A stretch of DNA of 13,732 nucleotides from an uncultured archaeon (GCA_964645535.1 CAZYCQ010000072.1:1-13732); one strand, 5' to 3'. Shown: positions 5,118 to 9,726, numbered from the stretch's first letter. The notes: generated from the sequence alone by a model not told the origin. Translations and numbers: made by a program.

Positions 5118-5230
5118 TGTGGGGTGGTTGGCTCTCGTAACAGCAACCGCGGAACCTCTAAGGGAACCTTAAGTGGGAACCTTGTGGTCCTTGAGTTGCT
5201 GAACCCGGTTGGAGAGTGCACCACCCCACA
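5118..5230 (+). ncRNA. Putative structured RNA / 5' leader of unknown family
   Basis: TGTGGGGTGGT (5118-5128) pairs perfectly with ACCACCCCACA (5220-5230); CTCTC/GAGAG (5132-5136/5212-5216); CAGCAAC/GTTGCTG (5141-5147/5195-5201); three GGAACCT repeats inside. GC-rich island in AT-rich spacer with TATA-like box about 27 nt upstream. Confidence 0.55.
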
Positions 5231-6820: not shown

Positions 6821-6952
6821 ATGATTGCGATATTCCCAATCACAGCAATTCTTCCTGTGCTTCTGGCACAGCTGGCAGCTTTGACCATTGCCTTCTTGGG
6901 CGACGATGACCAAGGAGGACCTCCACAGACAGATCCCTACGGTGGGGGCTAA
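6821..6952 (+). CDS. Unannotated 43-aa peptide: hydrophobic N-terminal helix plus acidic Gly/Pro tail
   Basis: MIAIFPITAILPVLLAQLAALTIAFLGDDDQGGPPQTDPYGGG*; GC content rises at the ATG relative to the AT-rich spacer; TAATTTATA at 6797-6805; its TAA overlaps the TAG of the convergent 578-aa gene. Confidence 0.65.
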   Translation: MIAIFPITAILPVLLAQLAALTIAFLGDDDQGGPPQTDPYGGG

Positions 6953-8685
6953 GAAATAGATCTATTCAAGTATTGAGTCATTTGAATTGTTTTCCATCCA
7001 TTTTCTGTAGGGACAAGTTTTTCCGTTTTCGGTGAAAAAGGAACAATCAACGGATCAGTAATCAATTTTGCATTTCCATCAATTTTCCGTATCTCATTGA
7101 TTATGTCCCTTCTGTGATTGTTGGGTAAGAAAAGATTTGCGACTCCAATTTTCACTTTGGCTTTTCGTGGATTGTCAAGAATTTCTTTCGCCTCTTCTGC
7201 TGAAGTTTTGAATGGAATGGTACCTATGAGGTTAACAAGAGCCACAGGGACTCTTGAAGCAACATATTTGATGAATTGGTGATACTTGTGTGAGGTTCCG
7301 TCAATCAGTACCAGATAAGGAGACATTTCTTTGGGGGCGAAAACCCACCTTCTTTCAAGGATCTTGTTTACCTTCAGTTCCCGTTTCAGATTTGAAAGTG
7401 TTGCTGGTTTTACATCGTATTTTGCCCTGATTTCGGTATCCGGTTTCTTGGTGAATAAATCCAATACGATCTGTTTCTTTTTGATGTCCAGATTGATTGA
7501 TAAATCCTGTTGGACTGCAAATCCATCTGAAGCGGAAGGTTTTGTCAGACTCCATTCTCCGGTTTCCAGGTTCAGGCCTTCAACGGAAAGAAACTGTCTT
7601 CTTTTTTCCGGGATCTCCACGCCGAAAACAATTTCGGGATCCTTGGGATTCGAAGAAAACCATTTCTGGATTTTCATCCATTCAATGATATACTTCTTGG
7701 TTCCCGCATTCCGAGGAAGGAGAAACTTGGATTGCAGTACGGTTCCCCATCCCCTGAATTCAGTGAAACGATAAATAATTGGGAATTCCTTGATAATGTC
7801 CTTCCAAGAAACGATTGTTTTCTCATTGGATGATGAGACAATAAGGTTGAGGACAAAAAGCCCTAAAGGTTCAAAGTTGGCGTAGTTTCTTTCCTGAAGC
7901 AAATAAGACTTGATGAGCAGATTCAACCTTTTCTGAAAGGTTTTCTTGCTCATTCCCATCATCTCGGCAAGCTTTTGAAGTGACAGATCCTGATGGAGTA
8001 CTCGTAACTTTAGAACTTGCAGGAAATCCCTACTCAAGGCAGGATAGGAAATCATGCTGATATAGGGCAGTCGTTCCAGTTCCCAAGTTGAAAGGGTTTT
8101 TCCTTTTAGACTCAGAATTCTTTCGACATAGGTTTCCAAAATCAACCTCTGTTCAATGGCTTGGGTCAGTTGCTCCAAATAGGTGGGATAGTCATAGTAG
8201 ATGCCTGGATAATCCTTACTCTCTCTTACCGGCAATACATCTTTCCAGAATTTTCGGAGTTGGGTTCGTTTTCCTTTCAGGACTATCCAGAGTATTCCAA
8301 ATGTAAAATCCACAAAAGGTATTATGACATTTCCGCTTAAACAGCCTTCAACTTGATTGCAGACAATATAATAGACAAAAATGAAGGGAACAAATATGGT
8401 GTTCAGTATTTGATCCCTGAAAATATGGATTTCAACAACCAATTCAACATTGTCTTTCTTCTTTTTCAATGAAAACTCAAGGAAAACTTTTTTCAGGATC
8501 TGGGTTTCCTTTGATGCTCCTTTAATGGAAACAATTCCAATGGCTGGCATGCAATCACCAAAGGCGTCATTCCATTTTTCAATTGCTTCATTAAGGATTT
8601 CCTGCAATTCTTCCTTGCTTTTCGGTTGGCGCTGAAAAAGATCTACCACAAGGTGTTGAAAATGATCACCTTTGGAAATTTCCAT
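6949..8685 (-). CDS. Tandem Lrp/AsnC-type wHTH regulator with an extra ~210-aa N-terminal domain
   Basis: HTH LSRDFLQVLKLRVLHQDLSLQKLAEMMGMSKKTFQKRLNLL followed by NFEPLGL linker and FPIIYR; LNLETGEW motif; second degenerate HTH LDIKKKQIVLDLF...DTEIRAKYDVKPATLSNLKREL. Same architecture as the 1..1086 protein. Confidence 0.82.
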   Translation of the reverse strand: MEISKGDHFQHLVVDLFQRQPKSKEELQEILNEAIEKWNDAFGDCMPAIGIVSIKGASKETQILKKVFLEFSLKKKKDNVELVVEIHIFRDQILNTIFVPFIFVYYIVCNQVEGCLSGNVIIPFVDFTFGILWIVLKGKRTQLRKFWKDVLPVRESKDYPGIYYDYPTYLEQLTQAIEQRLILETYVERILSLKGKTLSTWELERLPYISMISYPALSRDFLQVLKLRVLHQDLSLQKLAEMMGMSKKTFQKRLNLLIKSYLLQERNYANFEPLGLFVLNLIVSSSNEKTIVSWKDIIKEFPIIYRFTEFRGWGTVLQSKFLLPRNAGTKKYIIEWMKIQKWFSSNPKDPEIVFGVEIPEKRRQFLSVEGLNLETGEWSLTKPSASDGFAVQQDLSINLDIKKKQIVLDLFTKKPDTEIRAKYDVKPATLSNLKRELKVNKILERRWVFAPKEMSPYLVLIDGTSHKYHQFIKYVASRVPVALVNLIGTIPFKTSAEEAKEILDNPRKAKVKIGVANLFLPNNHRRDIINEIRKIDGNAKLITDPLIVPFSPKTEKLVPTENGWKTIQMTQYLNRSIS

Positions 8686-8695
8686 ATATATGCAA

Positions 8696-8754
8696 AAGAA
8701 AAATGGGGTAATAAACTAATTGAGAATTCCCTATTTTTTCTACCCATTTTTCTT
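8696..8754. promoter_or_regulatory. 12-bp perfect inverted repeat bracketing the promoter of the 578-aa regulator
   Basis: AAGAAAAATGGG (8696-8707) / CCCATTTTTCTT (8743-8754), with a related copy CCCTATTTTTTC (8729-8740); minus-strand TTTATTA at 8709-8715. Confidence 0.5.
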
Positions 8755-8839: not shown

Positions 8840-8990
8840 ACTTCTATCCCGCCAATACTACAGTTGAGGTTGAATGACCTCAACCCACCACGCCATTGGC
8901 ATGTGTGGAATGTGACCTCAGGGGCAGAATAGGATTATCCTGTTCCCCCCGAACCTCCAATCGGTCGCAGAATGGGGGGTGGGGGGGAGT
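8840..8990 (+). ncRNA. Putative multi-hairpin structured RNA of unknown family (strand tentative)
   Basis: Hairpin GTTGAGGT/ACCTCAAC (8863-8870/8877-8884); hairpin CCAC..GCC-ATT-GGC..GTGG (8885-8908); stem TGTGACC/GGTCGCA (8911-8917/8963-8969) enclosing GGGG..GAATAGGA-TTA-TCCTGTTC-CCCC (8921-8949); 5' ACTTCT.ATCCC can pair with the 3' G-rich tail. Confidence 0.55.
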
Positions 8991-9093
8991 CCTCTTTACA
9001 ATCAGTTGGCAATATCATTCTGTATTTTTTTAAGTAAACTTTGTCGTTTGTTTTGCCGAAAAACGATTAAACCATGAACATGATAAGGAAATA

Positions 9094-9726
9094 ATGATTG
9101 AAATCATCACCAAAGGAAATTTCTCACTTTGTCGAGGAGAGATTGGTGTCGATGATTTTTCCCCGTATCTGGAGAGTCTTCCGAAAATTGATTTTGTTTA
9201 TTGTGGTTTGCCCAAGCCAGAATATTACAGGTATTGGTATTCGACCATGAAAACCAAACCACAAATGAATTATGAAGACTATCTGTTAGTTGTTGGGGAC
9301 ATTCTTGTACAATTGGATGCAGCAGAATATCACCTTGAAGTGAATGACGGGAACAAGGATTTGGTTCTGAAAATCTTCGGAAATATGGATTTGAACTTCA
9401 AAAGCATGCCAATTCTGTATTCTGCCCCGATTGATGCAACTTCCGAAAGATATGCTAGAAAAAGAAAACCCGATGAGATGCTTGTAATTTCGAAAAAAAC
9501 TCTGCAATTGCCCACATCCGCAAAATATTCGCATGAATATCTTGATCAAGTTCTGGCAAGACCTCAAAAGTTGACATGCTTTGATCCTGCAATGGGCAAG
9601 GGACTTCTCGTGAAATTTTGTCTGAAATATGGTCATTCAGCCCATGGAATCGACATGAATTGGAATAGGTTGAAGGTTGCACTTGAAATGATTGAAACAA
9701 GCATCAGTTCTGACAAACCAATCTGA
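9094..9726 (+). CDS. Small beta-class N6A/N4C methyltransferase-like protein with degenerate catalytic motif
   Basis: C-terminal SAM-binding motif CFDPAMGKG...AHGIDMN; N-terminal SLCRGE...IDFVYCGLPK at the position of the usual D-x-(V/I)-Y-x-DPP(Y/W). Confidence 0.75.
   Translation: MIEIITKGNFSLCRGEIGVDDFSPYLESLPKIDFVYCGLPKPEYYRYWYSTMKTKPQMNYEDYLLVVGDILVQLDAAEYHLEVNDGNKDLVLKIFGNMDLNFKSMPILYSAPIDATSERYARKRKPDEMLVISKKTLQLPTSAKYSHEYLDQVLARPQKLTCFDPAMGKGLLVKFCLKYGHSAHGIDMNWNRLKVALEMIETSISSDKPI

Follow-up and report, generated by a model that had tools for sequence, protein, structure and literature searches.

A conserved structured RNA element next to the gene for a putative HTH regulator in two Heimdallarchaeota genomes, a candidate stand-alone small RNA

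The stretch of DNA analysed here, referred to as the window, comprises 13,732 nucleotides from the genome of an uncultured archaeon (G000; contig CAZYCQ010000072.1) and carries a GC-rich island at 8840-8990, with 51% GC compared with about 29-35% in the surrounding spacer. The island lies between the start of a gene for a 578-aa protein (6949-8685, - strand) and a gene for a 210-aa protein (9094-9726, + strand). Three hairpins with an enclosing stem, a G-rich tail and a T7 tract had been described there in a first-pass annotation, and all of them are present at the positions given (Table 1). The element is about 130 nt of real structured RNA and has a single copy in the 3.6-Mb G000 genome, as judged by BLAST and by a covariance model. 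The sequence TGACCTCA, which had been noted as duplicated, is indeed found at two places in the element and has four occurrences in the whole window, compared with 0.68 expected, but it is absent as a repeat from the homologue in the related genome G002; since the repeat is not retained there, we treat it as incidental.

The 578-aa gene encodes two HTH-like units and is the only conserved neighbour of the element. Its orthologue in G002, a Candidatus Heimdallarchaeota MAG that is congeneric with the source of the window, was found with an E-value of 7e-169 and 47% identity and is the sole orthologue among 60 relatives; a third one is present in public data (P0006/P0008, 53% identity) on contigs of 2077 and 2846 nt. 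Weak HTH matches were obtained at residues 213-259, a sequence search of the PDB with the protein gave no match, and an AlphaFold model calculated from a three-sequence alignment was unusable (mean pLDDT of 38.7), with two short three-helix segments, ~219-266 and 401-439, reaching values of 55-78. On the basis of the weak HTH matches, the protein may act as a transcription factor. The 210-aa protein, on the other side of the island, had been labelled methyltransferase-like; neither a methyltransferase domain nor any other domain was detected in it with Pfam and NCBIfam. A fragment similar to its C-terminal third (38% identity, five stops) is found elsewhere in the same genome, at G000:C134:149-370 (L012), and looks like a decayed paralogue of the 210-aa gene.

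The element belongs to a rare Heimdall cassette of four parts that are kept together, namely a structured leader with its winged-HTH (wHTH) gene, a gene for a 43-aa peptide, the 578-aa HTH gene and the RNA. The proteins of the cassette are just 37-47% identical between the two species and the neighbourhoods of the cassette differ between the two genomes. In G002, the orthologue of the 472-aa wHTH gene is located at a contig end (C47:81-1511) and is preceded by a gene for an NYN/Zc3h12a-type RNase, whereas a 7TM gene takes this place in the window. The peptide gene is found at the start of C141 of G002, with its PPQTDPYGGG tail conserved, and the ABC-transporter genes that the window carries on the right of the 210-aa gene are on another contig in G002. 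A GC-rich fold-back at the other end of the cassette in the window (5118-5230) is the leader of the wHTH gene; the G002 gene also has a fold-back leader, ACGGGATGG...CCATCCCGT (L099 1545-1600, on G002:C47, - strand), ~20 nt before its start codon. The motif GAACCTC is common to the element and to the 5118-5230 fold-back and was rejected as a link between them, as it is lost in G002.

The distance between the start codon of the 578-aa gene and hairpin 1 is 177-181 nt in both species, and the sole conserved block within this spacer is TGGGGTAATAAA, which reads as a TTTATTACCCCA box on the - strand. A similar box, TTATAATTACCCC, is present in the tRNA-Met promoter region of the same genome, and the conserved box is likely the TATA region of a leaderless or near-leaderless 578-aa mRNA. 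Because this promoter box implies such an mRNA, the element would lie outside it. The box is overlapped by an imperfect inverted repeat centred on GAATTC, a candidate operator through which the HTH protein might regulate its own gene. In place of the inverted repeat, the G002 spacer contains GGGGTAA(T/A)A as a direct repeat, its two copies 79 nt apart.

Table 1. Coordinates of the element, its parts and the features of the adjoining spacer (window positions unless another locus is named).
Feature	Position	Strand	Remarks
Imperfect 26-nt inverted repeat (I1)	8693-8718/8732-8757	.	77% complementary; AGAAAAATGGGGTA ... TACCCATTTTTCT
TTTATTACCCCA box	8704-8715	-	20-30 nt upstream of the 578-aa start codon; TGGGGTAATAAA read on the - strand
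5' strand of the 'closing helix'	8841-8853	+	tail-paired in the minimum-energy fold of the window; unconserved
Conserved RNA element	8861-8992	+	extent from the covariance model; three hairpins and G-rich tail
Hairpin 1	8863-8884 (8863-8871 with 8876-8884)	+	9 bp; structure kept, sequence not
Hairpin 2	8885-8908	+	CCACC...UGUGUGG conserved; loop AUU (G000) vs GUAA (G002)
Hairpin 3, outer stem	8911-8917 with 8963-8969	+	form A; encloses the inner stem
Hairpin 3, inner stem	8921-8934 with 8938-8949	+	form A
Hairpin 3, one-sided internal loop	8950-8962	+	carries ACCUCCA (8953-8959), identical in both species
G-rich tail	8970-8989 (G6-U-G7 = 8974-8987)	+	GAAUG6UG7AG; conserved in G002
T7 tract	9025-9031	+	~35 nt 3' of the tail; may terminate a + strand transcript of the window copy
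G002 copy of the element	L016 2123-2251		directly upstream of and divergent from the 578-aa orthologue

A BLASTN search with the element against 60 relatives gave no match, and the second copy was located in G002 (contig WAKA01000141.1) by means of the orthologue of the neighbouring 578-aa gene. A covariance model built from the window copy alone (R1) scores the G002 copy with 48.5 bits (E 7e-11), and a model built from both sequences (R2) gives 146 and 135 bits for the two copies. Comparison of the two copies, a check that had been proposed in the first-pass annotation, revealed changes on both sides in 9 of the 37 pairs of the model-based alignment. Standard pairs fill 94% of the alignment cells, compared with 37-49% when the partners are slid by 1-3 columns. 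Hairpin 1 has diverged the most, with 17% sequence identity, yet eight of its nine pairs are held and six have changed on both sides; hairpin 2 combines seven invariant pairs with one compensatory change (C-G to U-A), and two compensatory pairs are found in the inner stem of hairpin 3. The outer-stem core GACC/GGUC, the GGGG/CCCC stack, ACCUCCA and the tail, GAAUG5-6UG6-7AG, are invariant, so that the outer stem, the pairing of the C-run with the tail and ACCUCC are backed by conservation and energy rather than by covariation. Since only two copies exist, the covariation is that of a single species pair from one genus, in an alignment that was fitted to the structure. The compensatory changes show that the RNA has a real fold kept in both species.

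Between the two species, identity in the 3' domain is 76%, compared with a background of ~60% for the spacer and the downstream 100 nt in optimised global alignments, and the similarity on the right side breaks off exactly at the G-rich tail; the RNA is therefore the fourth conserved part of the cassette.

The + strand of 8840-8990 folds with an energy of −66.2 kcal/mol compared with −51.0 ± 3.8 kcal/mol for 200 dinucleotide shuffles (z −3.99), none of which is as good, whereas the - strand reaches z −2.72 with 3 of 200 shuffles as good; for the G002 copy the corresponding values are −4.20 and −2.76. The fold is thus better than that of shuffled sequences on both strands and in both species it is better on the + strand, in agreement with the strand preference that had been read from the G-U pairs. 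Indeed, three helix pairs are G-U when read on the + strand but A-C mismatches when read on the - strand, and the reverse case does not occur. The hairpin of the C-run with the tail is better on the + strand by 7-9 kcal/mol, with energies of −26.9 and −27.1 kcal/mol in the two species compared with −19.6 and −18.3 kcal/mol on the - strand. Hairpin 2, as had also been noticed, is better on the - strand, where it gains one pair. On these grounds transcription from the + strand appears fairly probable.

The surroundings of the G002 copy suggest where such a transcript would begin and end. A T5 run follows the tail immediately, T8 and T6 runs lie just 5' of hairpin 1, and these T-runs would bound a + strand RNA to about 2103-2253; nothing C-rich that matches 8841-8853 of the window is found there. 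The closing helix of the first-pass annotation does form in the minimum-energy fold of the window, but its 5' strand has no counterpart in G002 and the helix is for this reason probably outside the conserved RNA, with 8841-8853 probably located in or upstream of the promoter. Termination at oligo-T is in use in G000, as T5-T7 runs directly follow most of its 35 tRNA genes. AT-rich, TATA-like boxes occur on both strands near the element, one of them to the right of the tail in both species, and the placement of the promoter is ambiguous from sequence.

Two folds are available to the 3' domain. In form A, hairpin 3 is formed, ACCUCCA lies in its one-sided internal loop and the tail is free, whereas in form B the C-run (8945-8950) and ACCUCC (8953-8958) are paired with both G-runs of the tail, in G002 as a perfect 14-bp helix. 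Once the unconserved 5' strand is omitted, the minimum-energy fold of each species is form B, with a margin of about 10 and 20 kcal/mol. The pairing of the tail with the C-run, one of two options suggested at first sight, is therefore real and is extended by ACCUCC; the other option, a G-quadruplex, is not needed as an explanation because a C-rich sequence able to pair with the tail is conserved. For the inner stem of form A the support comes from compensatory changes, for form B solely from conservation and energy. True competition with the tail is confined to the 4-bp GGGG/CCCC stack, and the GACC/GGUC helix is compatible with form B as a possible H-type pseudoknot.

ACCUCC is also the anti-Shine-Dalgarno end sequence of 16S rRNA, and the tail itself resembles a Shine-Dalgarno (SD) sequence, with GGGGGU in G000 and GGAGGU in G002. 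In 1774 long ORFs of G000, GGAGG is found 106 times at −14..−5 compared with 15 times at −30..−21, and the SD-type motifs GGAGG, GGTG and AGGT are 4- to 7-fold enriched at −14..−5. No 16S rRNA 3' end was found in the G000 MAG. A duplex scan of the element against the mRNAs of its own cassette gave nothing above the shuffled controls; the best matches, none of which beats the shuffles, involve the C-rich antisense of the 3' end of the peptide gene.

An AUG within the conserved GAAUGGGGG opens Gly-rich frames of 22 codons in the window (8973-9041) and of 16 codons in G002 (L016 2232-2282). A small coding ORF was rejected, as the similarity ends after the Gly run and the frames have no SD, and they are probably untranslated. 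We also considered a relic of a peptide gene, as the window copy reads PP-x5-GGG in one frame and thereby resembles the PPQTDPYGGG tail of the cassette peptide; this was ruled out by stops in the frame, by run lengths that shift the frame and by the DNA of the G002 peptide gene, which is devoid of the motifs.

Searches for further copies returned the same two genomes. Of the 83 class genomes scanned with R2, just G000 and G002 gave a match, and again only these two among 12 genomes of the family when laxer filters were used (E<=5); a search of 400 genomes from the phylum for the exact tail pattern also returned these two alone. Phage and plasmid sequences contained no BLASTN match to the element. 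The 578-aa gene follows the same distribution: a pattern scan for its family returned G002 only among genome contigs and none among metagenome contigs, and the gene and the element occur together in two genomes and are both absent from the other 81 of the class, a co-occurrence that the first-pass annotation had proposed to examine.

The gene on the other side behaves differently. Homologues of the 210-aa gene are present in two congeners, G001 and G002 (L013 6442, L014 4510), in unrelated neighbourhoods, and no GC-rich element was found upstream of either. A + strand gene begins 93-104 nt past the tail in both genomes, but in G002 it encodes an ACT-ACT-HAD (SerB-like) protein unrelated to the 210-aa one. 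Because the downstream genes differ and the 210-aa homologues are devoid of the element, we assign the element to the 578-aa gene and correct the first reading, which had tied the RNA to the neighbouring methyltransferase-like gene. As judged from the two loci, the element travels with the 578-aa gene at fixed spacing and not with the downstream gene.

We sought to place the element in a known class of RNA. None of the 4227 models of Rfam 15 matched the window at the gathering threshold; in E-value mode the best matches on the G000 and G002 elements scored 13-17 bits, compared with gathering scores of 50-80, and are at chance level, as is mir-4433, the only family matching both copies. With BLAST and the covariance model also giving no repeat element, the view that no known family is involved is upheld. 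ARAGORN detected no tRNA or tmRNA gene in the window, and the GGGG..CCCC hairpin has no T-loop. An H/ACA guide sRNA was rejected, as the loop of hairpin 3 is one-sided, with 3 nt on its 5' side and 13 nt on its 3' side, and there is no conserved ACA, the lower stem being followed by AGAAUG in G000 and GAAUGG in G002; the H/ACA contacts in Rfam are to eukaryotic snoRNA, with 16-20 bits compared with gathering scores of 74-80, are at chance level and differ between the copies. Similarly, a C/D box sRNA was rejected with neither a C box (RUGAUGA) nor a D box (CUGA) in both aligned copies, and a riboswitch or cis leader class with no shared downstream gene family.

The motif C-(A)GAA-UGGG before the last helix strand led us to consider an HDV-like self-cleaving ribozyme. 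It was ruled out by the order of the helices, which is not P1-P2-P3-P1'-P4-P2' and, as read from the structure, places a hairpin between the first strands of the knotted helices, and by the two additional 5' hairpins. A REP/MITE-like interspersed repeat was rejected on the single copy in G000. One feature expected of an sRNA divergent from its regulator was observed, namely an adjacent gene in divergent orientation that is kept with the RNA: the 578-aa gene is conserved with the element, 177-181 nt apart, in both genomes. No published account of a comparable Asgard or Heimdall sRNA came up in a literature search.

A scan of metagenomes with the pattern C5...ACCTCCA...AATGGGGG returned 75 loci, most of which are an unrelated multi-copy repeat from one sample group or 3' ends of tRNA/tmRNA type, and the same scan of viral contigs gave one match, which duplicates a tRNA/tmRNA-type 3'-end locus (L094). 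The repeat (L023-L097, for example L023, L024, L029 and L084; contigs Ga0056114, Ga0056129, Ga0056130 and Ga0209680) is present on more than 30 contigs of this one sample group, is at least 130 nt long and ~80-95% identical by eye, contains ...ATCGCTGACCCCCTACGACCTCCACTTCCCCCAAAATGGGGGTTCC... and is unrelated to the Heimdall RNA. Three look-alikes, L035, L079 and L047, score 37, 19 and 17 bits with R2 and share the order of the 3' domain, that is a stem, a GGGG..CCCC hairpin, AACCUCCA, AGAAUG5-6 and a second G-run. Unlike the Heimdall loci, they are from GC-rich hosts, L079 and L047 are bacterial and upstream of rnpA, their gene contexts are unrelated to one another and to those of the Heimdall loci, and they are closer to the large unrelated repeat family from the same scan than to the Heimdall RNA. 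The 5' half of L035 alone gives 7.6 bits with R2. We do not count the three as members of the family, because the pattern preselected three motifs, the 5' half of L035 is weak and the contexts are unrelated; their homology to the element is not established. The region upstream of the bacterial rnpA (L079 4505-4722, - strand, and L047 1897-2006) is GC-rich and ~215 nt long, with a z of −5.5, a C-rich 5' end and a G-rich 3' end able to close, and has no Rfam match.

Taken together, these data are best accounted for, tentatively and at a little less than an even chance, by a stand-alone + strand sRNA gene of ~125-170 nt that would be divergent from the 578-aa HTH gene and form the fourth component of the cassette. 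Of the two readings offered by the first-pass annotation, standalone ncRNA or leader, it is thus the former that we continue to prefer. Among the observations that count against it, the first long T-run in the window lies 35 nt beyond the tail and hairpin 2 is slightly better on the - strand. A - strand transcript from a distal promoter at ~9000-9035, which would serve as a 5' leader or as an interfering transcript and regulate the 578-aa gene in cis, would agree with the extra pair of hairpin 2 and with the linkage of the element to this gene at a fixed 177-181 nt. It would also agree with the TATA-like A/T-rich box that each species has ~25-35 nt beyond the tail on its right, and with the distribution of T-runs in the spacer, in which the + strand is rich, whereas the - strand holds a single T5 in the window (8698-8702, close to the start codon) and lacks any in G002. 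The fold of the - strand still beats most shuffles (z −2.7). However, the + strand folds better in both species (0 of 200 compared with 3 of 200 shuffles as good), the - strand turns three G-U pairs into A-C mismatches and costs form B 7-9 kcal/mol, a leaderless mRNA is suggested by the conserved TATA-like box close to the gene, and the T5 that adjoins the tail in G002 suits a 3' end on the + strand. We consider this - strand transcript unlikely.

A cis leader or riboswitch-like attenuator of the downstream + strand gene, with forms A and B as anti-terminator and terminator, would make use of the two mutually exclusive folds of the 3' domain, of the GC-rich hairpin of form B that is followed by T5 in G002, and of the + strand gene found 93-104 nt after the tail in both genomes. 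The downstream genes, though, are unrelated (a 210-aa protein and an ACT-ACT-HAD phosphatase) and the 210-aa homologues of G001 and G002 are without the element, which together argue against a leader for the downstream gene, and the sequence from the tail to the gene is unconserved. Moreover, archaeal termination depends on oligo-U and not on a hairpin, so that a hairpin switch would have no known way to control it, and the attenuator seems to us quite unlikely.

Acting as DNA, the element could mark a structured terminus of a mobile cassette or a site for its recombination, or it could bind protein and fold only by chance: it lies exactly where the similarity between the two genomes breaks, the cassette has different neighbourhoods in them, a second GC-rich fold-back (5118-5230) lies at the opposite end, and compensatory changes are also possible in single-stranded DNA hairpin sites. 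Genes for a recombinase, transposase or integrase are nevertheless missing from the cassette, and the element, present in a single copy, has neither target-site duplications nor inverted terminal repeats. The elements at the two ends share no sequence relationship, the left one being a leader placed immediately 5' of the wHTH start codon in each species, and the strand asymmetry of the G-U pairs fits RNA; a role as DNA is very unlikely. Finally, a GC-rich fold arising by chance, with no function of its own, would be in keeping with the existence of just two copies and with the tendency of GC-rich islands to fold well anyway. It was already disfavoured and is scarcely credible, given a homologue that retains all the helices with nine double changes, a hairpin 1 structure kept at 17% sequence identity and a 3' domain that is 76% identical within a spacer at ~60% background, next to cassette proteins that are merely 37-47% identical.

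If the element is a stand-alone sRNA, it would be transcribed from its own promoter just 5' of hairpin 1 and stop at oligo-T, namely T5 after the tail in G002 and T7 ~35 nt beyond the tail in the window. The neighbouring HTH protein would control this transcription from the shared intergenic region and the sRNA would be the regulatory output of the cassette, as RNAIII is for agr, AimX for arbitrium and OxyS and SgrS for OxyR and SgrR; by analogy with these systems, we propose this role tentatively. In the most speculative step, ACCUCC would be a seed that binds the ribosome-binding sites of target mRNAs, exposed in form A and masked in form B by the SD-like tail. It could serve as a seed because it is the same sequence as the anti-Shine-Dalgarno and the genome uses GGAGG-type SD sites.

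The largest proposal is a Heimdall signalling cassette made up of a secreted peptide, an HTH receptor or regulator, a basic wHTH protein with an RNA leader and an sRNA with a switched ACCUCC seed, that is an archaeal counterpart of agr/RNAIII or arbitrium/AimX, and as a whole we judge it unlikely. Asgard archaea are the closest prokaryotic relatives of eukaryotes and, to our knowledge, almost nothing is known of their regulatory RNAs. The element is a candidate new RNA family, lineage-restricted, with clear structural conservation and no Rfam family. If the RNA is the output of the peptide and regulator pair, the cassette would be a complete portable archaeal signalling module, tractable for heterologous tests; if it is not, it would still be a clean example of a lineage-restricted structured RNA.

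Among known systems, the arrangement is most similar to agr P3/RNAIII, OxyR/OxyS, SgrR/SgrS, GcvA/GcvB and AimX of the SPbeta phages, in which a small RNA gene is divergent from the gene of a DNA-binding protein, and agr and arbitrium also encode a small peptide at the locus. As in these bacterial regulator-linked sRNAs, the RNA moves with the regulator and not with the flanks, and a stable 3' hairpin would be followed by a U-run. Unlike them, the Heimdall RNA is from an Asgard archaeon and has no sequence or Rfam relation to them, and it would start ~180 nt from the start codon of the putative regulator, which is farther than in most divergent pairs.

With respect to the putative seed, the C-rich ACCUCC could pair with GGAGG-type ribosome-binding sites in the manner of S. 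aureus RsaE/RoxS and the loops of RNAIII. The sole Rfam contact of this kind, with RsaE, is at chance level (17 bits compared with a gathering score of 79) and falls on the opposite strand in the G002 copy, and the C-rich stretch, unlike RsaE/RoxS-type seeds, is largely masked by the intramolecular G-rich tail. This masking recalls translational riboswitches and RNA thermometers such as preQ1-II and ROSE-type elements, in which an anti-SD-like ACCUCC pairs with an SD-like G-run and a competing fold exists, and the possible H-type pseudoknot of the GACC/GGUC stem with the ACCUCC/G-run helix is a further likeness. The Heimdall RNA differs from both in that no start codon follows its tail at a working distance and the downstream genes are unconserved, and from translational riboswitches in that no Rfam riboswitch model matches it.
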